64,000 nt of DNA from an uncultured virus (IMG/VR IMGVR_UViG_3300043777_000336) (Duplodnaviria > Heunggongvirae > Uroviricota > Caudoviricetes): IMG/VR virus record IMGVR_UViG_3300043777_000336; one strand, 5' to 3'. The position numbers and the translations under genes were made by a program. Shown here in pieces: positions 2,917 to 51,100 of the stretch. The notes beneath the pieces are model-generated. The model ran no database searches. It was not told the DNA's origin and was given only the letters and a program-made list of their open reading frames with translations. The number at the start of each line of letters is the position of its first letter. Positions within the stretch are counted from its first letter, which is position 1.

Positions 2917-3276
2917 GTGACCAGGAGGAATCCATACGTCGACGCGCCCAGTGAGGCACTCATCAACCGAGCTCGAAGGATGTTGGGAGCGGGCGCTTCG
3001 GTTCAAGATGTCCACGACGCCTTTGCCGAAGACGGCGTGCCCGAGGAGCAGATCTACCTCGCGATTCAGGCAGCGGAGCAGCTATTGCGCAATCCCATCG
3101 ACGATATTACCGCTCTGGAGCTCATCGTCGGCGGTATTGCAGCGGTCGTATTGACCGGGTTCGGCGGCTACCTCGTCTACACGGCTCTGAATCCGCCGGG
3201 GAGTACTCCTCAGGACACGGCAACGACGCTCGGGGAGGCTTCGTCTTTGGCCACGCTTACGGCGGTGGTGATGTGA
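2917..3276 (+). CDS. NP-leader TM protein with a helical cargo between two NP motifs
   Basis: MTRRNP...~50 aa...LLRNP-IDDITALE-TM ending GYLVY. Confidence 0.8.
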   Translation: MTRRNPYVDAPSEALINRARRMLGAGASVQDVHDAFAEDGVPEEQIYLAIQAAEQLLRNPIDDITALELIVGGIAAVVLTGFGGYLVYTALNPPGSTPQDTATTLGEASSLATLTAVVM

Positions 3277-3304
3277 TGAACCACGCCCTCGCGATGGAGA
3301 GCCA

Positions 3305-3808
3305 ATGAACCTCAGCAATATTCGTCGCGGCTACGGCGAACGAGAACGTCTCGCGATGGCCGGGATGCTTCGACGAGCCGGCTATCCGGAGCCAGGACTG
3401 ACCGCCAAACAACTTCAGCAAGAGGGAATGGATCCGAACGAACTTGCTTGGCGTCTTCGAACCGGACAAACGATCGATCCTAGCGGCGGCGGACCCATGT
3501 GCCGTAATCCTCTCGGTCTCTCGGGTACCGATCTCGTTCTCATCGCAGGAGGTGTCGCTGCGTTCGGCTTCGTAGGGTTTCTCATCTGGAACCAGATGCA
3601 GGTCAACCAAGAGCAGGCGACGGCCGCCGCGAACGGGTATCCCGGACCCGTCATCCAGCCCGCTTCCGCCGCACTCAATCAGTCCGGCGTTCTCGCGTCG
3701 AGTCAAGTCCTCCTCGGTGCGTCGAACATCCTGCCGCCCCCGGGGACGCCCGTAGTGCCACCCGTCTACGTCCCTGGTGCTCCTCCGCTTCTGGTGGCGC
3801 CCACATGA
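3305..3808 (+). CDS. Cargo-fused NP-TM protein
   Basis: ...GGGPMCRNP-LGLSGTD-TM ending GFLIW. Confidence 0.8.
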   Translation: MNLSNIRRGYGERERLAMAGMLRRAGYPEPGLTAKQLQQEGMDPNELAWRLRTGQTIDPSGGGPMCRNPLGLSGTDLVLIAGGVAAFGFVGFLIWNQMQVNQEQATAAANGYPGPVIQPASAALNQSGVLASSQVLLGASNILPPPGTPVVPPVYVPGAPPLLVAPT

Positions 3809-4215
3809 AAGAGCCTGTCTTCATCTCGGTCCGTCCCGGTGGACGCACGGTGCGCTATGAAAAGATTGGCCGGCGCTGGGAAGTCATGCGTAGTAATCCA
3901 ATCGAGGTCACGGGCATGGACTTGTTACTGATTGCGGGCGGTGTCGTTGCGCTCGGAGTTGTCGGATATTTCATCTGGACTGCCACGCAGAATTTGCAGC
4001 CTACGGTAAACGCGTCGGGCGGCGAAGGAAACGCACCTGAAGCTACCGATAGCTCGCAGGGACAATTCATCAACGTCAACGGTCAGCCTTTAGGGCCGTC
4101 CGCGAGCACTTCAGGAATTGATTTTTCTCAGCTGCAACCGGTAGCGCCAACTGCGCCAGCTCTCAGTCCTCTACTATCCAGAGGACCCCCTCCTCCGCTA
4201 CCAGCAGGATTTTGA
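3805..4215 (+). CDS. Cargo-fused NP-TM protein
   Basis: ...EVMRSNP-IEVTGMD-TM ending GYFIW. Confidence 0.8.
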   Translation: MKEPVFISVRPGGRTVRYEKIGRRWEVMRSNPIEVTGMDLLLIAGGVVALGVVGYFIWTATQNLQPTVNASGGEGNAPEATDSSQGQFINVNGQPLGPSASTSGIDFSQLQPVAPTAPALSPLLSRGPPPPLPAGF

Positions 4216-4688
4216 TGAAGACTGAAGCGCAAATACGACGATGGGAGCGAAACCCGCTCCCGCTCGGACTTACCCCCGTCGAGCTCGGACTGATTGCGGC
4301 AGGCGTCGGCGTCGCGGGCTATATCGCCTACCTGTTCTATAGTGCGTCACAAGCCGCATCCGTGCCCTCGAGTCCCACCATCAGCGTTGCCGCTGGAGAA
4401 CCGGGTACGGTTCAGGCCCCCACCTGGACCGGTGCCATCCTCGGCTCTGGTTATTTCTGGGGCGATCAGGGTAACGTGCAGCCACCCGCGCTGCTCGGCA
4501 CGGTCAAAGCTCTCGCGATGACCTCGTACGGCCTCGCGTCGACGATCACCGGCACGGTCTACATCCCCCTATCGCCGGCCGGCAATGTTTCGTTCTTCGT
4601 GACCGGACAGACGCCCGAGGATCCAAATAGCGGTGTCTCGTACGGACAGGCCATCACGCTACCTCTTTCGTATGTGAGCGCGGCGTAG
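4215..4688 (+). CDS. NP-leader TM protein with beta-rich C-terminal domain
   Basis: RRWERNP-LPLGLTPVE-TM ending GYIAYLFY. Confidence 0.8.
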   Translation: MKTEAQIRRWERNPLPLGLTPVELGLIAAGVGVAGYIAYLFYSASQAASVPSSPTISVAAGEPGTVQAPTWTGAILGSGYFWGDQGNVQPPALLGTVKALAMTSYGLASTITGTVYIPLSPAGNVSFFVTGQTPEDPNSGVSYGQAITLPLSYVSAA

Positions 4689-4696
4689 GAGCGAGC

Positions 4697-5593
4697 ATGA
4701 AAGTTATCCAAGACGATTTGTGGCTTTGCCAAGACTGCACCATCTACTCGGTCAATGGGGATACGTCTGGTATCGACTCCGAGGAGCGCGAGAAGGAAGT
4801 CGTCGAAGGTGTCAATGCGCTCGGGCCGCATCTCGTACCGGACTTCGACTCCGAGACGAACGAAGGTATCGAAGAGTTCTCGCGGCGACAGTGCGACGCA
4901 TGCGGTACGCGCCTCGGCGGTTCACGGGACCGGTTTGCGATCCTGGGTGAAGAGAGTCCCGAGGACGATCATCAGCGACACCGTATCGGGGCTCGACGGC
5001 CGCGAAAGTCACGGGAAAATGTGAAAGTCATGAGCGCAGAGAATCCTATTTCCGATCTGTCATGGGGGGAGATTGCGCTTATCACCGCTGGTGTTGGCGT
5101 CCTGGGGTACATCGTTTATTCCCTCTGGAATGCGACCGACTCGTCCGGAGCGGATGCGGCTCAGGCTTGGCAGGAGTCGCAGGCCACAGGTGCATCGGGT
5201 TTGCCGCAGGGTGTTGGGCAGTTCCAACAGATTGCCGGAGGGACTGCTCCCGTAGGAGGGACGGACTGGGCTACACAACAAACTTACGGGCCAGGGAATC
5301 CTGTCACAGTCGAGACGATTTCAGCATCAGACAGTCGCGTTTGCGGAAACGGAGGAACGACAGGATATTGTGATCAAGATCAGGGCAATACGACCGTTCC
5401 GTCTGTCGGCGATACCGTTGCTATCATTCTCCAAAATGAAGCCACAGGAAATACGTATCCGTTCCATGGTACCGTGCAATCGACAGACGGACAGACAGTC
5501 ACGTTCGTAGATTCGCAGGGCATCGGTTGGAATTATCCTCTTTCTTTCGTTCTGTCGGGTCCTGCCCTTGTCGCAGCGTACGTTGGTCTATGA
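4697..5593 (+). CDS. NP-TM protein with Zn-finger cargo and C-terminal domain
   Basis: CQDC...CDAC cargo; MSAENP-ISDLSWGE-TM ending GYIVYSLW. Confidence 0.8.
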   Translation: MKVIQDDLWLCQDCTIYSVNGDTSGIDSEEREKEVVEGVNALGPHLVPDFDSETNEGIEEFSRRQCDACGTRLGGSRDRFAILGEESPEDDHQRHRIGARRPRKSRENVKVMSAENPISDLSWGEIALITAGVGVLGYIVYSLWNATDSSGADAAQAWQESQATGASGLPQGVGQFQQIAGGTAPVGGTDWATQQTYGPGNPVTVETISASDSRVCGNGGTTGYCDQDQGNTTVPSVGDTVAIILQNEATGNTYPFHGTVQSTDGQTVTFVDSQGIGWNYPLSFVLSGPALVAAYVGL

Positions 5594-5799
5594 AAACCGA
5601 CGCGCAAATCCTTCGCGGACAGATCCCTTGCTGCAAATGTGGCAAGGCGATTGCTGAGAACGCGGCGCGCATGATCTTGTACGCCTCGCCTCTGATTTTT
5701 TCGGCCGCCTGCATTCCGTGCGCTCAGAACGAAGCCGGGCTGAATCATGAGCTCGTGAAATTGCCGGTTCCGAGGCCAGGAACGATTCTGAGGCCGTGA
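5590..5799 (+). CDS. Small Zn-finger protein
   Basis: CCKC...CIPC; ATGA coupling. Confidence 0.55.
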   Translation: MKTDAQILRGQIPCCKCGKAIAENAARMILYASPLIFSAACIPCAQNEAGLNHELVKLPVPRPGTILRP

Positions 5800-6113
5800 T
5801 GCGCTCTCGCCGAAACCCCGACAGCATCCTCTCGCAAATCGCGGTCAACACGACCCAGGACATCGTCCTGGCCGCGCTCGGTGTCGCGATCGTCGGCGGT
5901 GTCATCTACCTCGTTTACAAGAAGTCGACGGATGCCGGTACGTCGGTTGGCGAAGCTCTTGCGACCGAGGCGTCTTTTTGGTCGAGCACGCTCTTCCCAG
6001 GGCAGGGCGCGCAAGTCGAGCAGACTACGCCCTACGGCACGCTCGCTGAACAAGGTCCCGGCGCTTCCGTCCAGGGTGGTGCAGCTGTCACGGAAGGAGG
6101 CGGGTCGTCGTGA
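5796..6113 (+). CDS. NP-leader single-TM protein
   Basis: MRSRRNP-DSILSQIAVNTTQD-TM; close paralog of 6334..6639. Confidence 0.8.
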   Translation: MMRSRRNPDSILSQIAVNTTQDIVLAALGVAIVGGVIYLVYKKSTDAGTSVGEALATEASFWSSTLFPGQGAQVEQTTPYGTLAEQGPGASVQGGAAVTEGGGSS

Positions 6114-6337
6114 GTCCGCTCGGACAGGCCATTTTGGATCAGTGCGCCGTGCTTGCGGCGCTCAAGCCCTATTGCGACGAAGCGCCGACCGCCGCGGACG
6201 CGAAGCAGGAGGAGATCTCTGACGAAGACCTCACCGAGTGGCAAGCCCGCGCCAAGGTCGCGCGCCCTGCGTGGAAACGTGCGCTCGCGCGGCTCATGGA
6301 CATGTTGGACGGATACTCGGGGGAACCCACCCCATGA
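6110..6337 (+). CDS. Hypothetical protein
   Basis: GTGA/ATGA-coupled ORF between two NP genes. Confidence 0.55.
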   Translation: MSPLGQAILDQCAVLAALKPYCDEAPTAADAKQEEISDEDLTEWQARAKVARPAWKRALARLMDMLDGYSGEPTP

Positions 6338-6639
6338 AGCGCAAGCGTAATCCAACGACTGTTCTTCAACAGGTCGAGGTGAATCTCATCCAAGATGCCG
6401 TGCTTATCACGGCCGGCGTCGTGATCGTGGGCGTCGTCGGCTACCTCATCTACCAGAAGCTTCAGAGTGCAGTGCCTACCGTCCGAAATACTCTGCCTCT
6501 CCTGTTGTCAACGACTCCGGGCGTGGACCCGCTACCGCCTATCGACATGCCGGGTCGAGGAAGCGAGACCGTGCCCTTCACCAGCGACGCGAGCGGGACC
6601 ACCAGCGGGCCCGACAACACTCTCGTCGCGATCGGTTGA
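6334..6639 (+). CDS. NP-leader single-TM protein
   Basis: MKRKRNP-TTVLQQVEVNLIQD-TM ending GYLIY. Confidence 0.8.
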   Translation: MKRKRNPTTVLQQVEVNLIQDAVLITAGVVIVGVVGYLIYQKLQSAVPTVRNTLPLLLSTTPGVDPLPPIDMPGRGSETVPFTSDASGTTSGPDNTLVAIG

Positions 6640-6876
6640 AGTGCATCACGAAAGGCCGCACCCGAACTGGCCCATGACTTTGCACGTGCACCCCGACGGC
6701 TCGGTCATTGCCACCGCGAGGCTCTCCGATGGCCGGGTCATGCGTGTTGTTGGTCTACGTGCCAGTGCTCGAGAGAGCAGCGTCTCCGCAATCCGAGAAG
6801 CGCAGGAAGCGCGACGAAAGCACGAGCCGTGCGACGAGCTCTACAAGACGATCTTTCTGTTAGGATGGAGACCGTG

Positions 6877-7353
6877 ATGGAGAAAGACTTTGCGTTTCCG
6901 CAGTACGCCGTTCGAGGGTTGGGGCAGCCGTCGGATACTCAGCAGCCGCCCCCGGGAGGACACATCGCGGCGGCTCCTCCGTCCAAGAAGCCGCAGAAGC
7001 CCGCTACGCCTCCCGCGCACCAACCTGCCACGCCTCCCGCTGTGCACAAAGTGCCCGAGTCGTCTGCGCCCGAGCTAAGCAGCCACGGCTTCTGGTACGC
7101 GAAGTCAAAAAACCCTCCTTCCGGTTCGCCTCAGCACGGAGGTACTGGCGTATGGATTCAGCCGGAGGGTCACACGGGCTATTGGGTTTGGTATCCGAAA
7201 GAGAACCAGGCCACCAACATCGCGGCTCCGGGTCACCTGGCCATGACTTCCAACATAAAACCGAAGCCCATCGGCGGAAAAGACTGGAAAAAGCTCTTCT
7301 CAGGACCTGATTACTGGGTCTTGGAAGGTGAGACATATCCTCTTACGAAATGA
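6877..7353 (+). CDS. RGLGQ-leader Pro-rich protein with WVWYP domain
   Basis: YAVRGLGQ; GVWIQPEGHTGYWVWYP. Confidence 0.7.
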   Translation: MEKDFAFPQYAVRGLGQPSDTQQPPPGGHIAAAPPSKKPQKPATPPAHQPATPPAVHKVPESSAPELSSHGFWYAKSKNPPSGSPQHGGTGVWIQPEGHTGYWVWYPKENQATNIAAPGHLAMTSNIKPKPIGGKDWKKLFSGPDYWVLEGETYPLTK

Positions 7354-7363
7354 AGAGTCAGTT

Positions 7364-7564
7364 ATGCCCCAGCCCGTCAACCTCTCGGCCTGCGCTGTAC
7401 GCGAATACACCGCCGACGCAAAGCCTGCGGGCCGGTGCTGGTTTCATCTCGAAGGGAATCGCTGTCCTCGGCACGGGGACGTCTCAAAGGTCCAAGAGAA
7501 CTATCGCGCGACCGGACGATTGACGGACGAAATAGACCTGCCGAATTGGAAGAGAAATAAATGA
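7364..7564 (+). CDS. Small Cys/His protein
   Basis: C...CWFH...CPRHG; coupled to next ORF. Confidence 0.5.
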   Translation: MPQPVNLSACAVREYTADAKPAGRCWFHLEGNRCPRHGDVSKVQENYRATGRLTDEIDLPNWKRNK

Positions 7565-8094
7565 TCGGCTGTCAACACTGCGGCTCAACGAAGGGTTACG
7601 ATCGCACGTACGGACGTTGCTCGGATTGCGGAGAGCCCTATCAGGCGGGTACGACCGGCGCGCACTTCTTTACGAAGCGACCTCCCCCACCCGAGTTCTT
7701 CGAAAGGTTCAAGGGTCTTGGCAAGATTCCCGTTGTGCCTGTCATCGCCGGGACATGGCCGTGGGGAGACGTGTTCCCGTCGACGGTGCAGTTCAGCGAT
7801 GGACCTCTCACCGGTCGAACGTTCAACACAGCAACCTGGGCGTGGCCCCTCTACTCCGGAGTAGTCGCACAGTATCGAGAGGCCGTCGCTGCAAATGCAA
7901 TGCATCTCATGATCTACAGAAATGGAATGTACGAGGTCACTCACGTCGACGAAATTTCGCCGGACCTAGGCAATCCGATTCAGCATGCGATCGTAGACGC
8001 GCCTCTTGCGACGACGATCGCATGCGGCGTGCTAGGATTTGGAGTAGGACTTGTGACCGGGTTGTTCTTGTTTCGCTCGGGAGCCTCAGAATGA
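7561..8094 (+). CDS. Zn-ribbon + KGLGK + C-terminal TM protein
   Basis: CQHC...CSDC; FKGLGK; C-terminal IACGVLGFGVGLVTGLFLF. Confidence 0.65.
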   Translation: MIGCQHCGSTKGYDRTYGRCSDCGEPYQAGTTGAHFFTKRPPPPEFFERFKGLGKIPVVPVIAGTWPWGDVFPSTVQFSDGPLTGRTFNTATWAWPLYSGVVAQYREAVAANAMHLMIYRNGMYEVTHVDEISPDLGNPIQHAIVDAPLATTIACGVLGFGVGLVTGLFLFRSGASE

Positions 8095-8534
8095 ACCCGA
8101 ACCGTCCGCCGATTCAGCGCATCCAGCAGCTCATTGCGCTCGCGACGGACCCGGCCGCGAGCGAAGAAGAGGCGCGCACCGCGGCGCTCCAGGCCGCCCG
8201 CAGCATCCGACAGCACGGGTTGCAGCTGACGCCACAGGAAGCAGCTTGGGCGGCGGAGGATGGGCACTATGCTCCGGTCCAGCCTCAGCACCCATACGGC
8301 ACCGCCGTGACGCCTCAGAGCCGACAAATGGGCTCAGGAACGCCTCGGTTACCTTCCCCACACTCCACCGCGCTCGCGCGACCGTCATCCTGGCAAGCGG
8401 AGTCACAGCTGGGACGGCCCGGCGCGCCACGATTTCACGTCTTGAATTTGGACTTCAAAGACGAGGTCGCCGAGGCTCGTCCGAATTTCGCATTTCCTCA
8501 GGCGCTTCTGAACGCACTCAGGAGATCGACGTGA
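8091..8534 (+). CDS. DUF2786-like domain protein
   Basis: RIQQLIALATDPAASEEEARTAALQAARSIRQHGL pattern. Confidence 0.65.
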   Translation: MNPNRPPIQRIQQLIALATDPAASEEEARTAALQAARSIRQHGLQLTPQEAAWAAEDGHYAPVQPQHPYGTAVTPQSRQMGSGTPRLPSPHSTALARPSSWQAESQLGRPGAPRFHVLNLDFKDEVAEARPNFAFPQALLNALRRST

Positions 8535-8851
8535 GCGGACTGAAGCTCCCAAGCAATTGGGAAGAGAATATGCAGTACCTCGCCCAGGTGGGACACTTTC
8601 TCGGCGGCGCGCTCGTCGTCGTGGTCGCAGCGATGTTCTCGATCGTGCTAGGTGCCGGGTGGCTTCCCATCCTCGTCGTGCTCGGCATCGGTGTTGTCGC
8701 GGCGGCCGTGAAGGAGTTCTACCTTGACCGGCGCCCACCCGAGAGCGATTCGCTCGCGAACAGCGTCATGGACTTCGAGTTTTATATGCTCGGTGCTGCT
8801 GTTGCGGTGGGGCTCGTTGCGTTCGCGATGTTCCTGCTACACCGGTATTGA
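8531..8851 (+). CDS. 3-TM membrane protein (HFxGG...KE..D type), paralog of 9537..9962
   Basis: WEENMQYLAQVGHFLGG...KEFYLD...DSLANSVMDFEFYMLG. Confidence 0.75.
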   Translation: MSGLKLPSNWEENMQYLAQVGHFLGGALVVVVAAMFSIVLGAGWLPILVVLGIGVVAAAVKEFYLDRRPPESDSLANSVMDFEFYMLGAAVAVGLVAFAMFLLHRY

Positions 8852-9123
8852 TTCGAAGCGACTACCCGCCGTCCTGACCCGGAGGCTGTGGTTTCTCCAG
8901 AAAACGCGCGTGCAAAGGACGTTGCGAGCCGAGGCAGTGAATCGCTGCTGTCGCTGGTCGGCCGTTGCGTACGGCAGTTCCACCCGTGCCGCCCGTCGAC
9001 TTTTGGATCGCGTCTTGGACCTTTTGATTGAAAGCGATTTCCTGCGAGCGATGCCGGTGTCGGGTCCGCATGACGCTTAGTTTACACGTCTCCCAAGGGA
9101 GAGTCACCTTGCCTGCGAAGGCC

Positions 9124-9489
9124 CTAGAATGAGCTGAACGGCCGGGATTGCGTCGGTGGAGGTAGCGGCGCGACCTTCGGAGGCCCGGCGTCGGAGCTGA
9201 TGGCAAGAATCGCCGCGCGCCCCGTCCCCGCGTCGGGATGCTCGACGATGATGGCCTCGTGCGCGTTCTGGTGCTCGTCGATGTACTTCTGGAGCGCTTC
9301 GAGCTGTTCGTGCGTCGTGGCGACCGCTTGCTGATTCTGCACGATCGCCTTGTCGTGCTCCTCGTAGGCGGCCTTCGTGGTGTCCTTGCCCTTGAGCGCG
9401 GTCACGAAGGCCGCAGCTGCGAAGAGAATGCTTGCGACGGAGCCGAGAACTTGAGCCCATTCCTTGAGCTTGGTGCGATTGAGAGGCAT
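9124..9489 (-). CDS. TM + coiled-coil protein (possible lysis accessory)
   Basis: N-terminal TM then heptad-like stretch; TAGGGT 7 nt before ATG. Confidence 0.6.
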   Translation of the reverse strand: MPLNRTKLKEWAQVLGSVASILFAAAAFVTALKGKDTTKAAYEEHDKAIVQNQQAVATTHEQLEALQKYIDEHQNAHEAIIVEHPDAGTGRAAILAISSDAGPPKVAPLPPPTQSRPFSSF

Positions 9490-9536
9490 CGATCCCACCC
9501 TATCACCGTGACCGAAGACGAGGTAGGCTCGATCGC

Positions 9537-11009: not shown

Positions 11010-11010
11010 G

Positions 11011-11484
11011 TCAGTACCCCGGGTTCGAAGGACTGACGGGTTGCACGGGTGTGGGCGTCGGTACGGGAGCGACGGGAGCGCTCACAACCGTCGAGACGGT
11101 CGACTTGATCGACCAGTACGCGAGCACGCCGAGGACGACCGTGGCTCCGCCGACGACTGCTGCCGCTTCCCAGGGGGAGAGCCCTGCTCCACCGACGGCG
11201 ACGCGCGACGAGTAGTCGAACAGCTCGGGGGAGGTGGGGTTCGCTCCTCGATGGTATGGGTCGGCGGGGTCGGGATCGTGGCGATGGATCTCGTAGTAGA
11301 GCTCCGTGGCTTTGCGCTGGTGGTAGCGCGCCTGCTTCATGTCGCCGGCTTCCTTAAATGCGAGGGAAGCCTGCGCGTGGAGCTGACGCGCTTCCCGCAG
11401 TTGCTTCTCGGAACCTGTGCGACGCCCCTGGTCAGCTCGAAGCTCGGCGCGAAGAGCGAGCGAGTGCGCTCGACGGAGGCTCAT
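11011..11484 (-). CDS. Cargo-fused NP-TM protein
   Basis: Helical cargo, HRGANP...LSPWE-TM ending LAYW, P/T-rich tail. Confidence 0.7.
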   Translation of the reverse strand: MSLRRAHSLALRAELRADQGRRTGSEKQLREARQLHAQASLAFKEAGDMKQARYHQRKATELYYEIHRHDPDPADPYHRGANPTSPELFDYSSRVAVGGAGLSPWEAAAVVGGATVVLGVLAYWSIKSTVSTVVSAPVAPVPTPTPVQPVSPSNPGY

Positions 11485-40457: not shown

Positions 40458-40555
40458 GCAGCCGGTCGTCGTCTACCTCATGAAGGGCGAGGCGCGAAAT
40501 ACGCTGCAATCCTGACCTCTTGACGATTTTGTGCCTGATGCACCAAAAGTACCTA

Positions 40556-40590
40556 TTGACTCCTCAGGTGCCTATTGCTACAAGAGTGAC
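40556..40590 (+). promoter_or_regulatory. Sigma70-like promoter of the Ro60 gene (likely leaderless)
   Basis: TTGACT-17 nt-(TG)TACAAG, 6 nt before ATG 40591; CCTATTG direct repeat. Confidence 0.55.
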
Positions 40591-42261
40591 ATGACTCGTT
40601 ACTCGCAGCACGTCAGCGCGCTCGCTACGCCGCAGAGCGAGCAGGCCCGCCCGGAGCAAGTGAAGAACAACGCGGGCGGCTACACGTTCGCCCTCGACAA
40701 GTGGAAGCGGCTGGACCGTTTTCTCGTGCTCGGCTCCGAGGGCGGGACCTACTACGTCGGCGAGCGCGAGCTCACACGTGACAACGCCAAGTGCATCGAC
40801 GAGTGCATCGCCGAGGACGGTCTCCGTACCGTCAAGCGCATCGTCGAGATTAGCGATGCCGGCCGCGCTCCCAAGAACGACCCGGCCATTTTCGCGCTCG
40901 CCATGTGTGCAGGTGCCAAGGACTCAGCAACCCGAGTCGCCGCGCTCGCGGCGCTGCCGAAGGTTTGCCGTATCGGCACGCACCTCTTTCACTTCGCGCA
41001 GGACGTCGAGGGCTTCCGGCGTTGGGGCCGTTCTCTGCGGCGTGCTGTCGGCGCCTGGTACACGGACCGCAAGGTCGAGTCGCTCGCGCTTCAGGCGATC
41101 AAGTACCAGCAGCGCGACGGTTGGTCGCATCGTGATCTGCTGCGTCTCTCCCACCCGAAGGCGCCGACGCCAGAGCACGACGTCGTGCTGCGCTGGATCA
41201 CGGCTCAGGGCGATGTCACCAAGGAGACCAAGCGCGGCAAGGCGCTCGATCCGGACAAGCTCCCGAGCCTCATCCAGGCTTTCGTCGAGATCATGCGTCC
41301 GGGCGTCGATCCTCAGCGCGCCATCCAGCTCATCGCTGCGCACAAACTCCCGCACGAGTGCGTGCCCAACGAGCTCAAGGGCAACCCGAAAACCTGGGAA
41401 GCACTCCTCGACGGCATGGGCATCACGGCGGTCATCCGTAACCTCGCCAAGATGACGGCTGTGGGTCTGCTCAAGCCGATGTCTCAGGCCACGCAGCGCG
41501 TCGCTGCGCTGCTCACCGACACGCCCAAGCTCTTCGCCGGACGCGTTCACCCGCTCACCGTTCTCTTCGCGCTCAAGACCTACGAGAGCGGTCACGGCCT
41601 CAAGGGCTCGCTCTCGTGGGAGCCGGTCCGCGAGATCGTCGATGCCCTCGACGAGGCGTTCTACCTGTCGTTTCAGGCCATCGAGCCCACCGGCAAGCGG
41701 TTCTTGCTCGGACTCGACGTCAGCGGCTCGATGGTCGGCAACATGATCTCGGGCACGTCGCTCGACGCACGCCAGGCGTCCGCTGCCATGGCGATGGTCA
41801 CCGCGCGCAGCGAGAAGAACTGGCATGCGGTTGGGTTTGCCGCTGGAGCTCACGGCTACGGTGGCATGCACGGCGGCTCGCCGAGCAAGATGGTACCGGT
41901 CTCGATCTCGCCCAGGCAGCGTCTCGACGACGTCGTTCGCGCAATGGAAAAGATCCCCATGGGCGGCACCGACTGCGCGCTTCCCATGATCTACGCGCTC
42001 GAGCAAAAGCTCGAAGTCGACGCGTTCGTGATCTACACGGACTCGGAGACGTGGGCGGGCAACATCCATCCGTTCCAGGCGCTCCAACGCTACCGCCAGG
42101 CGATCGGAATCCCGGCCAAGCTCATCGTCGTCGGTATGACGGCAACCGAGTTCACTATCGCCGATCCGAACGACAATGGGATGTTGGACGTTGCCGGGTT
42201 CGACGCTGCGGTCCCCGGCATCATGGCGGACTTTGTCGCATCGCGGGAGGTGGTGTCGTAA
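40591..42261 (+). CDS. rsr: Ro60/TROVE-domain RNA-binding protein
   Basis: NNAGG, RFLVLGSEGGTYY, WGRSLRRAV, KYQQRDGWSHRDLLRLSHP, vWA DVSGSM, GGTDCALP, YTDSET. Confidence 0.95.
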   Translation: MTRYSQHVSALATPQSEQARPEQVKNNAGGYTFALDKWKRLDRFLVLGSEGGTYYVGERELTRDNAKCIDECIAEDGLRTVKRIVEISDAGRAPKNDPAIFALAMCAGAKDSATRVAALAALPKVCRIGTHLFHFAQDVEGFRRWGRSLRRAVGAWYTDRKVESLALQAIKYQQRDGWSHRDLLRLSHPKAPTPEHDVVLRWITAQGDVTKETKRGKALDPDKLPSLIQAFVEIMRPGVDPQRAIQLIAAHKLPHECVPNELKGNPKTWEALLDGMGITAVIRNLAKMTAVGLLKPMSQATQRVAALLTDTPKLFAGRVHPLTVLFALKTYESGHGLKGSLSWEPVREIVDALDEAFYLSFQAIEPTGKRFLLGLDVSGSMVGNMISGTSLDARQASAAMAMVTARSEKNWHAVGFAAGAHGYGGMHGGSPSKMVPVSISPRQRLDDVVRAMEKIPMGGTDCALPMIYALEQKLEVDAFVIYTDSETWAGNIHPFQALQRYRQAIGIPAKLIVVGMTATEFTIADPNDNGMLDVAGFDAAVPGIMADFVASREVVS

Positions 42262-42907: not shown

Positions 42908-42928
42908 AGACGCGCTATCCTTGAGGGC

Positions 42929-43749: not shown

Positions 43750-44027
43750 GCCCGGACGACACCCTCCCTTGCCCGGCATCGGTTCCACCGCCGGGTGAGG
43801 ACGCGGATGCTCGCGAAGAACGCGCGAAGGCAACCTACGCAGCATACTGCAACATGCGTTCGTTCCTCAAAGGACCGGCCCACATCCTTCGACCTTGGGA
43901 TGGGCTTCCCCCTGATGAGCGCGAGGCGTGGCGCGAGGCGGCTGACGTCGCCTACAACCACGTGATAGTGTCCTCATATGAACCACCACTACCACCGAGT
44001 TCACCCCCGTCTCCGCGGCGTCCGTAG
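43746..44027 (+). CDS. Hypothetical protein
   Basis: RAKATYAAY...PWDGLPPDEREAWREAA. Confidence 0.5.
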   Translation: MSPDDTLPCPASVPPPGEDADAREERAKATYAAYCNMRSFLKGPAHILRPWDGLPPDEREAWREAADVAYNHVIVSSYEPPLPPSSPPSPRRP

Positions 44028-45291: not shown

Positions 45292-45295
45292 CCGG

Positions 45296-45360
45296 CCTCA
45301 CCTCACACCACATTGCCACGCCGCACCGCGACCTACCGTGCAGCCCGTACCGCGCCTGCC
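45296..45360. repeat. Degenerate 5-nt-period repeat tract
   Basis: cctca cctca cacca cattg ccacg ccgca ccgcg accta ccgtg cagcc cgtac cgcgc ctgcc. Confidence 0.55.
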
Positions 45361-45961
45361 AAGCACCAGCTCAGAAACATCGAGCTTGTCCGCGAGCTGG
45401 CGGCTCGCAATGCAAACCGTATCAACTGCAACAAGTGACGTCAAATGAGTATCGCCGAAGCGAACGCAGAAAATGTGTGCTTCTACTGCCGGCAGGGCCT
45501 CGGTAAAGAAGTCTCTGCTACGGCAACCGTCCACGATAGGCGTGGCTGCGTTCGCGTCTGCGCCGATCACGAGAGATGGCGCAAGACTACGTCTTTCATG
45601 ACTGGACATTCGAGGTGTCCTGACGGACCGCAGGCGTAGTCGTGTATCAAGGCTGGCTCACGAACAATCTTACGAACACCTCATACGGAGGCAATCATTG
45701 GCCTTCGGTCACGCTCAATTACTACCCTCTCGAAACAACTGTCGCACCGGGATGTACGCTCGGACCGGCCCCAACGCCACACTGGGGTCCGAAAGCAAAG
45801 CCGCCCGGACCTCCTCCCGTTCTCGTCGCGCTCGCGTCACGCCCGAGACTCCCGCGTAAGCTCCTTTCGTTCGAAGTCTTTGCGAGGCCTTTGCGCGCCC
45901 GGCTCGCCGCTCGACGTAGACGCCGGCCGCTACGAAGCCGACCGGGAGGGCGCAGGCGCTC

Positions 45962-47041
45962 ATGACCGTTGCGCTCTCTATGATCGTGAAGAACGAAGCG
46001 CAGGTCATTGCGCGCTGTCTCGCGTCAGTGAAGCCGTTCATCGACACGTGGGTCATCGTCGACACAGGCTCGACCGACAGTACGCAAGCTCTTATCAGCT
46101 TATGCATGCAAGCCATCCCAGGCGAACTCCATGAGCGACCATGGAGAGACTTTGCGAGCAACCGCAACGAGGCCATCGAGTTTGCGCGGAGCAAAGCCGA
46201 CTATCTCCTCGTGATGGATGCAGACGACGTACTCGTTATCCCGCCGGACTTCGTCATGCCGCCCCTTACAGCGGACTCCTACAAGCTTCGTATCGAGAAC
46301 GCCGGCACAACGTACTGGCGGACGCAGCTCTTTCGCTCGGACTCGGACTTTCACTACGAAGGCGTGCTGCACGAAATACTTCTAGGCGGCAAAACCGAAT
46401 CGCGCCTGGAGGGGCTCACCTACCTCTGTTCACGTGAGGGCGCACGCTCGACAGACCCGAAGAAGTTCGAGAAGGATGCCGCCGTACTCGAAACCGTCCT
46501 CGCTAGCGAGCCACCCGCGCACCTGCGTGCTCGGTACACGTTCTACCTCGCTCAGAGTTGGCGCGACGCGCATCAGCCCGACAAGGCTCTCGCTATGTAC
46601 GAGAAGCGCGCAGCCATGGACGACGGATTCGAAGAGGAAGCCTGGCACTCGCTACTCGAGGTAGCCAAACTAAGTGCGCGACTTGGACGCGGAAACGCTG
46701 CCGTCATCGATGCCTACCTGCGCGCGTACGAGCGTCGGCCGTCTCGCGCCGAGTCGCTCTGCTATCTCGCGGTGTACCTGCGTGAGCACGAACGCATCGC
46801 GGCAGGCTACCCGTTCGCCCGCATCGCAAACGAAACGCCTCGGCCCGACGACATTTTGTTCATCGACGACGCGGTCTACGCATGGCGTGCAAAGGACGAG
46901 TGCGCGGTGGCCGCCTACTGGACGGGTCGCTTCGAAGAGTCGTTCGCGCTGAATGCAGAGCTTCTCGAAGAGGGAGCTCTACCCGAAAACGAGAAGGAAC
47001 GCGTGCAGCACAATCTCGACTTCTGCCGAGAGCGGGTCTAG
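45962..47041 (+). CDS. GT2 glycosyltransferase with TPR C-terminus
   Basis: MIVKNEAQVIARCL, DTGSTD, NRNEA, MDADD (DxD), YEGVLHE, FYLAQS. Confidence 0.9.
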   Translation: MTVALSMIVKNEAQVIARCLASVKPFIDTWVIVDTGSTDSTQALISLCMQAIPGELHERPWRDFASNRNEAIEFARSKADYLLVMDADDVLVIPPDFVMPPLTADSYKLRIENAGTTYWRTQLFRSDSDFHYEGVLHEILLGGKTESRLEGLTYLCSREGARSTDPKKFEKDAAVLETVLASEPPAHLRARYTFYLAQSWRDAHQPDKALAMYEKRAAMDDGFEEEAWHSLLEVAKLSARLGRGNAAVIDAYLRAYERRPSRAESLCYLAVYLREHERIAAGYPFARIANETPRPDDILFIDDAVYAWRAKDECAVAAYWTGRFEESFALNAELLEEGALPENEKERVQHNLDFCRERV

Positions 47042-47051
47042 TCTTTTGCTC

Positions 47052-47315
47052 ATGCGAAACTACCGAGGCAACCCCATCTCGACCGGTCAGAAGGTCGCCA
47101 TCGCCGCAGTAGGCGTCGTCGCGGTCTCGCTCATCGGCTACCTCGTCTACGAGTCGACCGCCTCCGCGAGCACGTCAAGCACGGGAACAGGAGCCACAGG
47201 AGCGACCGGCGCGACCGGGAGTGCCGTCGGACTCACTGGAGCAACCGGGATGGGACGACTCCAAAGAGCTCCCGGTCCGGTAGGTTCGTCGGCGCCGGTT
47301 GGCGTTGGCGGCTGA
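47052..47315 (+). CDS. NP-leader TM protein with GAT repeats
   Basis: MRNYRGNP-ISTGQK-TM ending GYLVY; TGATGATGATG. Confidence 0.8.
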   Translation: MRNYRGNPISTGQKVAIAAVGVVAVSLIGYLVYESTASASTSSTGTGATGATGATGSAVGLTGATGMGRLQRAPGPVGSSAPVGVGG

Positions 47316-47386
47316 CGCGCAGCTCAAGCGCTGGGGCCTGGCGCTCAGTCCGAGGTCATGGGATCCTCTCCGCAGGGAGAGAAACC

Positions 47387-47545
47387 ATGAACATCTATTT
47401 GGCGCCGCTGGTTCTCGTCATCGCGATACTTCTCATGCTCTTCGGCAACGCGAAGGCGCAGCAGTTCACTCCGGCCATGTACTGGCTCGGCTGGGCATTC
47501 ACGCTCTACGAGTTCAGCTCGAAGGTCGCGCTGTCAATTCACTAG
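47387..47545 (+). CDS. Small 2-TM protein
   Basis: MNIYLAPLVLVIAILLMLFG...; GGGAG RBS. Confidence 0.55.
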   Translation: MNIYLAPLVLVIAILLMLFGNAKAQQFTPAMYWLGWAFTLYEFSSKVALSIH

Positions 47546-48120
47546 AACGTGATCGTTCCTGGGCTCGAGCTCACCACTATCTCGGGCGGCGCGACGAACG
47601 GGTGCGCCTTGATCCAATCGGCAGCCATCCCCGAGCGCCGATCGGCTTGCTCTTCGTGCTCGACGCAGTGGCCAACGGTATATCCGCTGAGATCGTGGCA
47701 GGTCTTGTACGACGCGCGGATGTGCCGCAGACCGGCACGCAGGCAGCTCGGGCGGTCGGTGACGACTTCCCCGGGCCAGAGATGGAGTTGAAGCAAACAT
47801 TTCGCATGTCCGTTGTCCCCGAGCTTGACCAGCATGTCGACGTCCTCGCGGTATCCGCCGCTCTCGAATCTGGCGACGCTCGCAAGGAGCACAGCAGTCT
47901 TCACGCGCCCGTCGAGCTCTCTAGTTTGCTTCTCGACCGTGGCACTCCGGAAGACGGGAGGCTCGTCGGGGTCGAGCGATACGTCGGCGATGTCGGCTGC
48001 GATGTCGCTGTAGCGAGCCAGCGTGTACTCGTCGCTGACACCCAAGAAACGGTGGTTTGCGACAGGGTAGTGAGCGGTCATGAAGGCGAGGATGTAGGCT
48101 TTCAGGGCTAGATTCAGCAT
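47542..48120 (-). CDS. Lysozyme-fold/lytic transglycosylase-like protein
   Basis: LLASVARFESGG...GDNGHAKCLLQLH. Confidence 0.6.
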   Translation of the reverse strand: MLNLALKAYILAFMTAHYPVANHRFLGVSDEYTLARYSDIAADIADVSLDPDEPPVFRSATVEKQTRELDGRVKTAVLLASVARFESGGYREDVDMLVKLGDNGHAKCLLQLHLWPGEVVTDRPSCLRAGLRHIRASYKTCHDLSGYTVGHCVEHEEQADRRSGMAADWIKAHPFVAPPEIVVSSSPGTITF

Positions 48121-48194
48121 TCGGCGACCCTCGCGCGAACCGGAGCCAAGGTCAATCTCGACGCGTCGGAGATGGTAGGATACTCTGGCTGCTC

Positions 48195-49013
48195 ATGGCG
48201 AAGAGCTCTGTCAAGGCCACTGCAATACGTCGCGCCCGGAAGTTCGAGGACGTCGCCCGGTACTACTACGATCACGGCGACTTGGCCCAGGGCGACCAAT
48301 ACCAGGCTCGAGCCAATCAGTATTGGCGGGACGGCGGAAAGCCTCAGATGATCAAGGCTCTCCAAGGCAGCTCGGCGGCGAACCCCGTCCAGTACGACTA
48401 CTCCGAACGGACCGGACGCTACGAACGCGTAAGTCCGCCCGTCCCTCCGGTGGGTCGAATCGACTTTCACCGCATACCACTCAATCAGGGCGGCTACGAC
48501 CGACGCGGCGAATACTTCGGTCAGGGTGCTCCTCTCTACGAATGGTACGACGAGGAGTCTCAAAGAAGTTACTTCACCCGAGCGAGCTCTCGCGCCCAAG
48601 CCAAAACGTACTTCGAAAATGTACGCCGACATCTTGTCGAATACGGCGGCCACGGATGGTGGGGACAGAAGAACCCAGGAAAAGGAAATCCCATGCGAAC
48701 CTATCAAGGCAATCCCATCTCTGACGGTCAGAAGATCGCCATTGGCGCGGCAGCCGTCGCGGTACTCGGACTCGTCGGCTACTTCATCTACCAGCAGACG
48801 TCGTCCTCATCCTCGCAGGCCGCCGCGGGCAGTGGAGGAGGCACCATTTCGAGCGGCCAGCAGCCCTACCAGCTCGGTACGTCGACATCGACGAGTATGC
48901 CGGCCGCAAGCGCTCAGGGAACCATCGACTACTCGACCTCGACAGCGTACGCGCCGGGCTACTCAGCCGCGAACCCACCTCCTCCCGCAGCGGTCAACCT
49001 CGGCGACGTCTGA
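48195..49013 (+). CDS. Polyprotein-like NP-TM protein with two cargo domains
   Basis: SAANP, QKNP, KGNP, QGNP; cargo 2 contains LNQGGYDRRGEYFGQGAPLY; TM ending GYFIY. Confidence 0.8.
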   Translation: MAKSSVKATAIRRARKFEDVARYYYDHGDLAQGDQYQARANQYWRDGGKPQMIKALQGSSAANPVQYDYSERTGRYERVSPPVPPVGRIDFHRIPLNQGGYDRRGEYFGQGAPLYEWYDEESQRSYFTRASSRAQAKTYFENVRRHLVEYGGHGWWGQKNPGKGNPMRTYQGNPISDGQKIAIGAAAVAVLGLVGYFIYQQTSSSSSQAAAGSGGGTISSGQQPYQLGTSTSTSMPAASAQGTIDYSTSTAYAPGYSAANPPPPAAVNLGDV

Positions 49014-49022
49014 GGTCACGAC

Positions 49023-49592
49023 GTGTCGTTCAAGCACAAGAGCACCGTCATCTATAAGGTCCATCCCGAGCCGGGTGGTGGCGAGCGTTCGGGCCACGTT
49101 AGCGTTCGGACCGATCGACACGCGAAGGGCGGCTGGTGGACCGTCAGCAATAAGGCCATCGTCCAAGCCCTTGTCGACGGCAGCTATTTGAACAGCTGGA
49201 TGATCGCAGACGATGTCGTCATCGAAGGAGACGACGACGGCGTCTTGTTTATTACATACTACAAGAGAGGTAGAGAAGAGCCACTCTACCAACTCGAGTA
49301 CGAACGACACCATCACATCGACGAACCGTCCAAAAGCTTCTTCGGGAGCGAACCTTCCAAACCAAACCCAACCTCCGATTCATCGACTCTCCAGACCGTA
49401 GGCTGGATCGCGTTCGGCGTTACGGTTGTAGGGCTCGCCGGGTGGTGGCTCTACTCGACCTCGAAAGCGAACACGGCTGCGACGCAGGCTCAGAACGTTC
49501 TACTACCCGCACAGCCCGCGCAGACGCCGCAGACGCAAGATCAAGTTCCACCGTTCATTCCATCTGACGTGTCACAGCCGATTGGAGTTTGA
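49023..49592 (+). CDS. Cargo-fused NP-TM protein
   Basis: ...SKPNP-TSDSSTLQ-TM ending GWWLY. Confidence 0.75.
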   Translation: MSFKHKSTVIYKVHPEPGGGERSGHVSVRTDRHAKGGWWTVSNKAIVQALVDGSYLNSWMIADDVVIEGDDDGVLFITYYKRGREEPLYQLEYERHHHIDEPSKSFFGSEPSKPNPTSDSSTLQTVGWIAFGVTVVGLAGWWLYSTSKANTAATQAQNVLLPAQPAQTPQTQDQVPPFIPSDVSQPIGV

Positions 49593-50008
49593 CCATGCGT
49601 AGAAGGTCTCGACGAGAGTACGACCGAACAAATCCGACCGGTTCCCCTCGGGCCGGCCTCTACGTTGCGCCAGGCCCGCTCTCAACCGGCGAGAAGGTCG
49701 GTCTCGTCGCGGCGGGTGCTGCTGTGCTCGGAATCGTCGGCTACCTCATCTACAAGAGCTCGTCCTCGACAGCCGCTGCGACCCCACCCGCCACGACCGC
49801 AAATCCAACGGCAAACTACCCCGTTGTGCAGACGCCGATCGCCCAGCCTCCCAACATCCTTGCCGGCGGCCCCGTCAATCCGACCGGCGGCCAGATCTAC
49901 GACCCGAACTTCGGTGTAACAGGTCCGACGAGCGAAACGACAATCGGCGGCCAGGTCTACGATCCGAACCTCGGCGGCAGCGGCGCCATCATGCCGAGCG
50001 GAGGCTAA
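49589..50008 (+). CDS. NP-leader TM protein
   Basis: RRRSRREYDRTNP...LSTGE-TM ending GYLIY; GGQxYDPN twice. Confidence 0.8.
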   Translation: MTMRRRSRREYDRTNPTGSPRAGLYVAPGPLSTGEKVGLVAAGAAVLGIVGYLIYKSSSSTAAATPPATTANPTANYPVVQTPIAQPPNILAGGPVNPTGGQIYDPNFGVTGPTSETTIGGQVYDPNLGGSGAIMPSGG

Positions 50009-50011
50009 ATC

Positions 50012-50581
50012 GTGGCCCGAACTGTCGTCATGCTCGGTCGTGGTGTATCCGTTGAGAGAGCTGCTGGATCAAAGGACTGGTACGTCTATCACACACGTCG
50101 AACCGGCATGTGGACATGGACCCCAAATGAACGGATCTCAGGCCCCTTTCGAGACAAACAACAGGCCATTCTCAGCGCGCAAGACATCAGTAGCCGAGTC
50201 CCGATTCCGTGGGGAGAACCTGACTATAAATACGTCCCGGGCGATGGTCCTCATGGCGATCCACGCCACGCATACCCCGGCGACGACGTTCCACTGACGA
50301 TAGGAGAACCCATGCGTCGATATCGCCGAAGAAACCCTCTCACCTCGACTGAGGATCTCGTCATCGCCGGCTTCGGGCTCGCCGTGGCGGGGCTCATCGG
50401 CTACGCCATTTACTCGAAGGGACAAGCGACGGCAGCTGCACCTGCAAACCCGAACATCTCGACGGCGCCGAGCCAGGCCCAGCAGGAAGCCTACGATACC
50501 TGGGTCATGCAGCAGATTCAGCTAGGAAACGTCTCGCCGGCTCAAGCCTCAGCCGCCGGAGCGATTCCGTCGGGAGGCTAA
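50012..50581 (+). CDS. Cargo-fused NP-TM protein with internal start at 50312
   Basis: ...GEPMRRYRRRNP-LTSTED-TM ending GYAIY; AGGAG before internal ATG. Confidence 0.8.
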   Translation: MARTVVMLGRGVSVERAAGSKDWYVYHTRRTGMWTWTPNERISGPFRDKQQAILSAQDISSRVPIPWGEPDYKYVPGDGPHGDPRHAYPGDDVPLTIGEPMRRYRRRNPLTSTEDLVIAGFGLAVAGLIGYAIYSKGQATAAAPANPNISTAPSQAQQEAYDTWVMQQIQLGNVSPAQASAAGAIPSGG

Positions 50582-50584
50582 GTC

Positions 50585-51100
50585 GTGCCTGAGCTATTCA
50601 AGTTCGCCAAGTGGAGTGACGTCCTCGCATACGCACGTAGTGGCGGCCCGCTCTACTACCAGGCACCGTTGGACGCTCGACCGACGAAGCTCTATCCAAA
50701 GACCTATAGCGGGTGCGAATCATGCTACTTGGTTCGCGCCCGTACGATTCGTATCTGGCCGTACGGATCGGTTGGCCGTAGTCGAAGACGTACTTCCGAC
50801 CCGTTCACTGCTGACGTCGATCACCTAGAGCGGTTCAGCGCCCCTGAAGAGCCGATGCTTGGCGACGACTCTTTTCGAAACCCACTCACACAGTCCACGG
50901 ACGCCGAGCACCTCAAGATGACCACCATGGTCGTCGGTGGACTCGCTGCCGCGGGCATCGTCGGCTACATCATCTACAAGGTCAGCCAACCTGCAACGCC
51001 CGTCGTCTCCGCAGCGATGCCGCCCGGCATCCTCGGACCGGGTGGATCGACGACGCCAGTGGGTCCCGTAGCGAACCCGACCGGACCACAAGGAAGCTGA
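50585..51100 (+). CDS. Cargo-fused NP-TM protein
   Basis: ...SFRNP-LTQSTDAE...TM ending GYIIY. Confidence 0.8.
   Translation: MPELFKFAKWSDVLAYARSGGPLYYQAPLDARPTKLYPKTYSGCESCYLVRARTIRIWPYGSVGRSRRRTSDPFTADVDHLERFSAPEEPMLGDDSFRNPLTQSTDAEHLKMTTMVVGGLAAAGIVGYIIYKVSQPATPVVSAAMPPGILGPGGSTTPVGPVANPTGPQGS

Follow-up and report, generated by a model that had tools for sequence, protein, structure and literature searches.

Introduction

Phage phi29 encodes p16.7, a membrane-anchored protein with one transmembrane (TM) helix and a soluble domain. TonB and TolA have a short cytoplasmic N-terminal end, one TM helix, and, on the outside, a Pro-rich low-complexity spacer. The internal proteins of phage T4 carry a soluble N-terminal capsid-targeting peptide that is removed inside the capsid by the prohead protease. 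Here we compare with these systems a family of small proteins, which we call NP-TM for an Asn-Pro dipeptide followed by a TM helix, encoded in a stretch of 64,000 nucleotides (GC content, 61%) from an uncultured virus (IMG/VR record IMGVR_UViG_3300043777_000336). This whole stretch is referred to as the window, and positions are counted from its first nucleotide. An earlier note on the window, made from its letters and open reading frames (ORFs), proposed that small effector genes are captured in front of an anchor gene, that retained internal start codons give long and short isoforms, and that cleavage at NP releases cargo packaged in the particle, by the logic of the T4 internal proteins. 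The analysis presented here makes it reasonably probable that NP-TM proteins are a rapidly shuffling family of anchors with a cytoplasmic N terminus (N-in) that tether captured small cytoplasmic domains.

Results

A hidden Markov model (HMM) built locally from window members detects 21 NP-TM members in the window, 20 of them clear and 1 weak, and about 22 to 24 in a second IMG/VR record (G001; 127,529 bp). The window is syntenic with G001 from end to end at 68 to 93% nucleotide identity; G001 carries direct terminal repeats and has a completeness rating of 100%. The NP-TM genes occupy the same two tandem arrays in both, and G001 has a few extra at 48 to 51 kb. Two core alignments (A1, 20 sequences; A2, 34 sequences) define the five-part module. 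An Arg/Lys-rich leader precedes an invariant Asn and a Pro that is at least 90% conserved; next come a short polar linker with an acidic residue at its end and a Gly/Ala-rich TM helix terminating in G-Y-x-x-Y/W; and last comes an uncharged tail in which Ala, Pro, Gly, Thr, and Ser are abundant. The polar linker between NP and the hydrophobic core is 0 to 19 amino acids (aa) long (median, 5), and the hydrophobic stretch, with the acidic residue at its start, has about 19 to 24 residues.

The A2 profile matches 392 clusters at E values of ≤1e-3, and 41 at ≤1e-10, among 1.84 billion representative proteins. We analyzed the representatives of the best 150 of the 392 clusters. Five are polytopic proteins matched through the helix only, which were excluded; 8 carry NQ, NT, or NA; and 137 carry NP. 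No Pfam-A, PHROGs v4, or NCBIfam 20 model covers the leader-NP-TM region in the 20 window members scanned. The only matches were sub-threshold ones to unrelated TM segments, such as Phage_holin_10 (E = 0.03; 14.8 bits versus a cutoff of 27) and SecE models (E about 1e-3, far under the cutoff). A full-text literature search, limited in scope, returned nothing on such a family, which does not show that the family is unpublished. The NP-TM proteins are probably small bitopic membrane proteins of a family that has not been described before and has expanded heavily.

The length of the sequence before NP is bimodal among the 137 representatives: 81 have fewer than 20 aa (3 to 19 aa; stand-alone members), and 56 (41%) have 25 to 174 aa (fused members). 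Overall, the local motif is (S)-(R/K)-(E/R)-N-P-(L/I/T)-(S/T/G). The stand-alone consensus is M-R-R-R-R-(Y/R)-(Y/R)-R-(R/E/K)-N-P-(L/T/I)-(S/T/G), with Arg at position −2 in 70% and at −1 in 42%. Fused members have the consensus …S-(R/K)-E-N-P-L-S, with Glu at −1 in 50% and Arg there in 12%. The 10 residues before NP include 4.3 Arg or Lys in stand-alone members and 2.7 in fused members, and the tails (median, 47 aa) contain 0.5% Lys, 1.0% Arg, and 1.4% Glu. Because basic residues precede NP and the tail is nearly chargeless, the positive-inside rule would place the N-terminal side in the cytoplasm and the tail outside. From this charge bias we infer an N-in/C-out topology, according to which the module would be a general membrane anchor.

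A basic region followed by a Gly-rich core and an Ala-rich stretch could also be read as a Sec or Tat export signal, either cleaved or acting as a signal anchor, with the tail as the secreted product. The stand-alone proteins lend this some color, as their run of Arg up to NP, often with Arg-Arg directly before it, leads into a hydrophobic stretch and then into S/T/Q/A-rich sequence with AxA-like triplets. However, 41% of members would place a folded domain of 25 to 174 aa in front of the supposed signal, the twin Arg is not kept in fused members, half of which have Glu at −1, and a hydrophobic stretch of this length with an acidic start is anchor-like. We consider export quite unlikely.

In the window, where we defined an extension as at least 30 aa before NP, 9 of the 20 or 21 members are extended, by 30 to 172 aa, in keeping with the earlier estimate of about half. 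Named by their start positions, they are 2917 (2917..3276), 3305 (3305..3808), 3805 (3805..4215), 4697 (4697..5593), 48195 (48195..49013), 49023 (49023..49592), 50012 (50012..50581), and 50585 (50585..51100) on the plus strand and 11484 (11011..11484) on the minus strand. Such extensions might be artefacts, that is, open frames lying 5′ of the true start or genes joined by assembly frameshifts. Long chance ORFs are expected in GC-rich DNA, and positions 6238-6333 and 52338-52376 are in fact noncoding in the anchor frame. The apparent extensions from 6238 and 52338 were rejected, as another frame scores better in both, and the true starts of these stand-alone members are 6334 (6334..6639, plus strand; MKRKRNP…) and 52377 (52377..52679, plus strand; MARRFRKPNP…).

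The nine real cases behave differently. According to a codon table from 20 confident genes, the annotated frame is the best of six in all nine cargos, with modest scores (0.086 to 0.10) for 3305, 50012, and 50585. Comparison of the pre-NP parts with those of G001 gives 57% aa identity and a ratio of nonsynonymous to synonymous substitution rates (dN/dS) of 0.21 for 3305, 66% and 0.29 for 4697, and 49% and 0.41 for 49023. For 3805 the identity is 64%, and the proportions of nonsynonymous (pN) and synonymous (pS) differences are 0.24 and 0.85. These values indicate that all four parts are under purifying selection. Homologs of six extensions are found in independent contigs; the same fused architectures occur in G001, in loci L033, L035, and L036, and in many database clusters; and two extensions (49023 and 48195) are predicted to fold with high confidence. 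The upstream starts of six of the nine fused members have a Shine-Dalgarno (SD) duplex energy of ≤−6 kcal/mol, and at 50012 and 50585 the GGAGG is supplied by the Gly-Gly codons with which the preceding member ends. Taken together, codon usage, selection relative to G001, upstream SD sequences, and predicted folds indicate that the extensions are translated. The artefact explanation is largely refuted, and we give it very little weight; it could survive only for 2917, 11484, and 50012.

The cargos are unrelated to one another and mobile. The 65 extensions (56 from representatives and 9 from the window) form 36 groups with no BLAST link at an E value of 1e-4, 27 of which are singletons, and tblastn finds 5 of the 9 window cargos to be absent from the whole of G001. 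Where the anchor is shared with G001, the front may differ. Compared with their G001 counterparts, 50585 (98-aa cargo; NP at 50879) is 53% identical after NP and 11484 (81-aa helical-looking cargo; NP at 11241) is 74% identical, whereas the parts before NP are unrelated (26 to 27% in forced alignments). Member 2917 has 58 aa before NP, comprising a leader-like MTRRNP and about 50 aa of helical-looking cargo ahead of a second NP at 3091 and the TM helix; its G001 ortholog has 24 aa, and the cargo has no homolog in G001. The anchor and tail of 50012 correspond to an 86-aa stand-alone gene in G001 that starts at the aligned Met, and those of 48195 stand alone in G001 and in the metagenome locus L036. 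Other combinations recur: the 30-aa cargo of 3805 (PVFISVRPGGRTV…) is found in 5 database representatives, and the 49023 cargo is fused in 10 of 10 aligned homologs. Sequence after the helix is also shared across members. The tail motif GGQVYDPNLGGSGAIMPSGG is common to stand-alone 49589 and the 49023-type proteins P0017 and P0024, and a C-terminal beta-looking domain is common to 4697, 4212, and a G001 member (L024, reverse complement 6147..6743). In 4697 this domain follows the TM helix and is absent from the G001 ortholog; a PL(S/E)(F/Y)V motif is common to the C-terminal parts of 4212, 4697, and one G001 member.

Several cargos also exist without an anchor. The cargo of 4697 (residues 1 to about 90 of the 115 aa before NP at 5042) matches phrog_3034 (E = 2e-6; residues 11 to 82), phrog_8253 (E = 2e-4), and the C-terminal part of Gordonia phage Fury gp90, a protein of 141 aa with no terminal hydrophobic helix. 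The CxxC…CxxC pattern that had been noted as a Zn finger is kept in the window protein, its G001 ortholog, and Fury gp90, so that this cargo is predicted to be a Zn-ribbon-like small phage protein of the phrog_3034/phrog_8253 type with two conserved CxxC pairs. The N-terminal part of P0021 matches a family of the same type at an E value of 1.2e-9. A beta/alpha domain of 48195 is found in P0004 (181 aa, no TM helix) and, in another arrangement, in P0005. The 50585 cargo is found in P0156 to P0159 (79 to 120 aa), which end soon after the domain. Other representatives match phrog_2423 (52 positions), phrog_16160/DUF6582 (69/83 positions), and phrog_1915 (141 positions), which are families of free-standing size, and the PHROG matches to the N-terminal cargo of 4697, P0021, P0124, P0027, P0051, and P0141 span nearly the whole profile. 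No homolog of the 50012 cargo was found among database proteins of 55 to 175 aa, the only length range searched, and the ESM Atlas gave no usable match to the 50012 protein. The cargos of 2917 and 11484 have no match in G001 or among the 56 representative extensions; no separate database search was made for these two. The proposal that unrelated small domains have been captured before the anchor is therefore borne out by the swapped fronts in relatives, by free homologs for three of the nine window cargos (4697, 48195, and 50585), and by the old junction preserved at 50312 (see below).

Two observations on neighboring small genes may be added. Three of the free homologs of the 50585 cargo (P0156 to P0158) open with Arg-rich leaders (such as …RRRYGR…) like those of stand-alone NP-TM proteins, and small proteins of this virus lineage may have Arg-rich N termini more generally. 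In G001 (L024, reverse complement 7466..7741), a free 91-aa soluble gene lies between two members and overlaps the start of the next by ATGA, an arrangement from which an in-frame fusion could arise.

AlphaFold2 models were obtained for two cargos. Residues 1 to 100 of 49023, which has 114 aa before NP (at 49365) and no internal Met, form a beta-rich domain, as had been described, with a predicted local distance difference test (pLDDT) score of about 90 (10-sequence alignment). In 48195 (172 aa before NP; 7 sequences), the helical hairpin of the earlier note is present at residues 3 to 45 (pLDDT, about 86), but a beta/alpha domain at about residues 64 to 150 (pLDDT, 83 to 91 over residues 90 to 150) had been overlooked. 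A KNP-GKGNP linker lies between this domain and the anchor. A Foldseek search of the 49023 model against the PDB gave nothing at an E value of ≤1e-3, and VIA-align wide gave a best Z score of 6.5 (2i1s_B; root mean square deviation, 3.7; 87 aligned residues), a level that the tool calls common. For the 48195 model, the fold search returned only generic helical hairpins over residues 1 to 57 (Z ≤ 7.3, likewise a common level), and the beta/alpha domain was barely covered.

The six internal ATGs of the earlier note are all in frame, 3 to 8 codons before NP: 3497 in 3305 (67-aa cargo; NP at 3506), 3886 in 3805 (NP at 3895), 5030 in 4697, 48693 in 48195 (NP at 48711, followed by the TM helix and tail), 50312 in 50012 (107 aa before NP at 50333, of which 100 aa are cargo, then the TM helix and tail), and 50855 in 50585. 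A Met within 8 aa of NP thus occurs in 6 of 9 fused window members, compared with 9% expected (binomial P = 3.7e-5), and a Met within 12 aa occurs in 20 of 56 fused representatives, compared with 14% expected (P = 4e-5). The SD-like motifs AAGGA (before 48693) and AGGAG (before 50312) are present, with duplex energies of −5.6 and −7.3 kcal/mol. For reference, the median is −2.65 kcal/mol over the 146 internal in-frame ATGs of confident genes and −6.1 kcal/mol over 22 confident gene starts. Only 50312, which is in the top 9% of internal ATGs, reaches the level of gene starts; the four Mets other than 48693 and 50312 have weak energies of −2.1 to −5.0 kcal/mol.

At 50312, the internal Met is aligned to the first residue of the stand-alone G001 ortholog, and the window sequence gacgATAGGAGaacccATG is the counterpart of acaTAGAGGAGccactcATG in G001, where it reads as a stop codon, an SD sequence, and ATG. 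Together with the SD energy in the gene-start range, these correspondences make a convincing case that 50312 is a retained start codon with the ancestral SD and ATG. The case for 48693 is weaker: it keeps a whole leader of the stand-alone type (MRTYQGNP), like that of its paralog 47052 (19 of 33 residues identical between the two modules, which had been called close paralogs), and the module occurs alone in two relatives. None of the other four has the appearance of a retained start. Met 3497 and Met 3886 are missing from the G001 orthologs (QKTSRNP and WERANP), and Met 50855 is within the cargo end MLGDDSF, which is conserved in L036 and P0046, and has no SD (−2.1 kcal/mol). For Met 5030, the G001 ortholog has its Met at a different position.

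One explanation for this pattern is that the retained start and ribosome-binding site are used, so that each fused gene yields two proteins, a long one with cargo and anchor and a short one with the anchor alone, in which case the ratio of the two products would matter for function. The well-spaced AGGAG of 50312 with its energy in the gene-start range, the preservation of the old junction there, the full leader and SD of 48693, the independent fusion P0012, which retains ENP-MRRRFRKKNP, and the family-wide enrichment of Met before NP are all consistent with dual isoforms. On the other hand, 36 of 56 fused representatives lack a Met in the 12 aa before NP, two of the six window Mets are absent in orthologs and a third is part of the cargo, the SD is weak at four of six, and a recent fusion would retain its start even without selection. 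We therefore regard dual isoforms as an unlikely explanation for the family, although internal-start use is possible in the youngest fusions (50312 and perhaps 48693). The simpler and best reading of the Met before NP appears to be that it is a slowly decaying relic of the old start after repeated, recent fusions.

The earlier note also took NP to be a cleavage site, whether autocatalytic or cut by a protease, which would make the anchor a removable targeting tag and release the cargo, possibly in the particle. The Asn is invariant and the Pro nearly so in the 34 aligned members, within a conserved local motif; a second NP lies at another domain border in 2917, 48195, P0002, P0003, and P0095; and FlhB/YscU (NPTH) and reovirus mu1 are known to cleave themselves at N|P in an Asn-dependent manner. 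Nevertheless, 81 of 137 representatives have only 3 to 19 aa before NP and thus nothing to release. NP is equally invariant in these, which suggests that the motif serves the anchor itself. The NPTH context is absent: position +2 is Leu in 43 to 48% and Thr in 9 to 15%, position +3 is Ser, Thr, or Gly, and His is outside the five most common residues after NP. X-Pro bonds are, moreover, poor protease substrates. The extensions contain 12 extra NPs, compared with 7.1 ± 2.5 in shuffled sequences, which is not clearly above chance, and the idea that NP marks every domain border was rejected on this count. A TM anchor is also the reverse of the soluble N-terminal targeting peptide of T4, and capsid, terminase, and prohead protease were not recognized in G001. 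Cleavage and packaging thus both find no support, no protease logic having been found and no capsid or terminase family having been detected in a complete relative, and we consider this model highly improbable. The likeliest role of Asn-Pro is as a juxtamembrane motif, for structure or interaction, that every member needs; it is probably not a cargo-release site.

There is a slim chance that the basic leader and NP are instead a processing or sorting signal, and that N|P scission, self-catalyzed or enzymatic, would free some 20 small proteins concentrated at the membrane. If so, an anchor-only isoform in the youngest fusions would add to the release system, and the Arg-rich leaders of P0156 to P0158 would belong to one shared addressing system.

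The other window members are all on the plus strand and, the weak one apart, stand-alone. Member 1172..1519 (HMM E = 1e-14) begins with MARRRYHRRNP..., and its tail ends in PPGG. Member 1970..2284 (…YYRANP…) has a G001 ortholog that is stand-alone too. The weak 21st member, 2518..2628 (HMM frame, 2230..2625; E = 2e-5), reads …MAKNPLDGEGW… followed by a TM helix and a stop; its start is uncertain, and its G001 ortholog is a 64-aa stand-alone gene. Member 4212..4688 has a longer C-terminal part, and 5796..6113 begins with MRSRRNP…. Farther along are 47052..47315 (MRNYRGNPISTGQK…), the paralog of the 48693 module; 49589..50008, whose end codons GGA GGC TAA are the GGAGG SD of the GTG at 50012; 51103..51324, the best conserved, with 89% aa identity to G001 after NP; 52676..52930 (MRRRKNP…); and 55209..55547, in which NQ replaces NP.

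Many members end in (P)-x-G-G, as in PPGG, PAGG, VGVGG, PSGG, PSGG, and TAGG at 1505-1519, 2270-2284, 47301-47315, 49994-50008, 50567-50581, and 51313-51324. A terminal GG occurs in 15 of the 137 representatives, about seven times the expectation from a Gly content of 12%. Because GGA GGC TAA at 50008 and 50581 is the GGAGG of the next gene, translational coupling, and not the function of the protein, may be what dictates the terminal GG. Two proteins have a mirror arrangement in which a Gly-rich hydrophobic helix leads to NP and then to a very basic C-terminal tail (window 192-908, plus strand, …SQPKPDVRRLPKANPVRRKRPTKKFRKPVKKRKR; G001 50757..50224, minus strand, …MKSNPLSIGHGTQRRFRRVRRAKPRRRAR); the NP/basic element may therefore work beside a membrane helix in either order. 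The second array is interleaved with other small Gly-rich membrane-protein genes (53637-54221, 54232-54744, 53476-53703, and 51326-51574) that are conserved in G001 and fall outside the NP-TM family by HMM. They include a paralog pair sharing …PQGILVAGGG.ATLVGVIGAIFS…YRK.FA.AAGAG… and two multi-helix Gly-rich proteins. A homing-endonuclease-like gene (51575-52519, minus strand; phrog_314, E = 9e-14) sits in the middle of this array on the opposite strand. It was not detected at the corresponding position of G001; two NP-TM members adjoin there.

The remaining window genes are those that typify a large phage-like element. There are two AAA ATPases, one with a match to phrog_8638 (E = 1e-134) and 40% identity to Mycobacterium phage Corndog gp96, as well as a tyrosine integrase, a DUF3560-methyltransferase, a ComM-like ATPase, Ro60/TROVE, RtcB, a subtilase, a GT2 glycosyltransferase, and the homing endonuclease. 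Replication genes in G001 include a helicase, a primase, Sak4, an exonuclease, ThyX, and a dCMP deaminase. Searches of G001 for the large terminase (PF03354 and PF03237) and HK97-type capsid (PF05065) detected none, and 35 ORFs from its 22- to 60-kb region have no PHROG match. An element with terminal repeats and many phage-type genes thus lacks a recognized capsid or terminase, and its virion module is either very divergent or absent. NP-TM genes appear to be carried by a soil lineage of virus-like elements roughly 125 kb in length.

Ro60/TROVE with a vWA domain (40531-42261; E = 9e-67) and RtcB (57358-58869; E = 4e-87) are both encoded in the window, although tRNA and Rfam scans over the window gave no match to Y RNA, tRNA, or any other Rfam family. 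The closest cellular RtcB homologs are from Polyangia/Myxococcota metagenome-assembled genomes (67 to 74% identity), which is a weak hint at the host. Five Polyangia-like genomes searched for NP-TM members gave weak TM-only matches and no prophage, and fixed no host. Megablast of window positions 44 to 56 kb against known phages gave no match, a related-locus search with member 51103 returned G001 again and nothing else, and a scan of genome contigs with the ATPase alignment found no relative. A sigma-70 promoter scan across both NP-TM arrays gave zero sites. Among sequencing runs, the sequence was listed for a single soil DNA run, which may be its source, and for no RNA run.

Discussion

Our best explanation for these results is that the NP-TM module would be a general membrane anchor with its N terminus in the cytoplasm and its uncharged tail displayed outside. 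About 40% of the proteins carry a small soluble domain in frame ahead of the anchor, which would tether it at the inner face of the host membrane; there, the anchored domains probably serve accessory or host-interaction functions. Fusion would occur by capture or replacement of the upstream neighboring small gene within tight, co-directional tandem arrays. The 50012 junction shows such a capture at the level of sequence, and we infer the same route for the other fusions. N-terminal domain, anchor, and tail would all be shuffled among paralogs and related genomes. The Met before NP would mostly be the remnant of an old start, and the youngest fusions (50312 and perhaps 48693), which seem to keep the old ribosome-binding site as well, could still yield an anchor-only product.

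Several points weigh against this explanation. Gene callers may have over-extended the N termini of database proteins, which would inflate the fused fraction of 41%. Codon usage is the sole sign of translation for 2917, 11484, and 50012, which have no homolog where searched, and for 50012 the codon score is modest (0.086, versus −0.127 for the next frame). Charge bias is the one ground for the N-in topology. In the 49023 model, NP is not at the start of the predicted helix but nine residues before it, in a low-confidence linker, and fold searches with the 49023 and 48195 models give no function.

One anchor type accounts for roughly a tenth of the genes in a 127-kb element. Because the family is expanded, has many unrelated partners, and includes the fresh stop-SD-ATG junction at 50012, it provides a natural series for studying how phage-like elements create membrane-tethered proteins from captured neighbor genes. 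It also gives a handle on small "hypothetical" phage proteins, since the anchored versions point to a site of action on the inner surface of the membrane.

Compared with known systems, the NP-TM family is similar to each in part. As in the T4 internal proteins, a short common element is joined to unrelated small payloads that vary between related genomes. Unlike the T4 element, however, the NP-TM element is C-terminal to the payload, contains a hydrophobic helix of 19 to 24 residues, and is equally conserved without a payload, and no cleavage, protease, or capsid link was found. FlhB/YscU are likewise membrane proteins whose cytoplasmic side bears an invariant Asn-Pro (the side being deduced for NP-TM), but the NPTH tetrad and its folded context are absent here, where NP of the 49023 model falls in a linker of low confidence. 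Tat signal peptides differ in their near-invariant Arg-Arg, compared with Arg at −1 in 42% of stand-alone and 12% of fused NP-TM members, and 56 of 137 representatives have 25 to 174 aa in front. Stand-alone members have a basic leader, as do type IV (class III) prepilins, but no G|F-T-L-x-E motif. The layout of NP-TM proteins is like that of TonB and TolA, and the likeness extends to a small beta domain at the C terminus in 4697, in 4212, and in the G001 member at L024 reverse complement 6147..6743, although there is no Pfam or NCBIfam match, most NP-TM tails have no terminal domain, and N-terminal cytoplasmic domains such as those of the NP-TM fusions are not a TonB feature. The families phrog_3034/8253, phrog_2423, phrog_16160 (DUF6582), and phrog_1915 represent the same domains as some cargos, but their profiles of 52 to 141 positions include no anchor. 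Like the NP-TM fusions as proposed here, phi29 p16.7 is encoded by a phage and holds a small cytoplasmic domain at the host membrane through a single-pass anchor. Such joining of an anchor to a soluble domain is commonplace, and the NP-TM family stands out through the scale and clarity of the process: p16.7-type proteins are encoded by single genes, whereas the NP-TM family has about 20 paralogs per genome, at least 36 unrelated N-terminal domains, and an invariant Asn-Pro.

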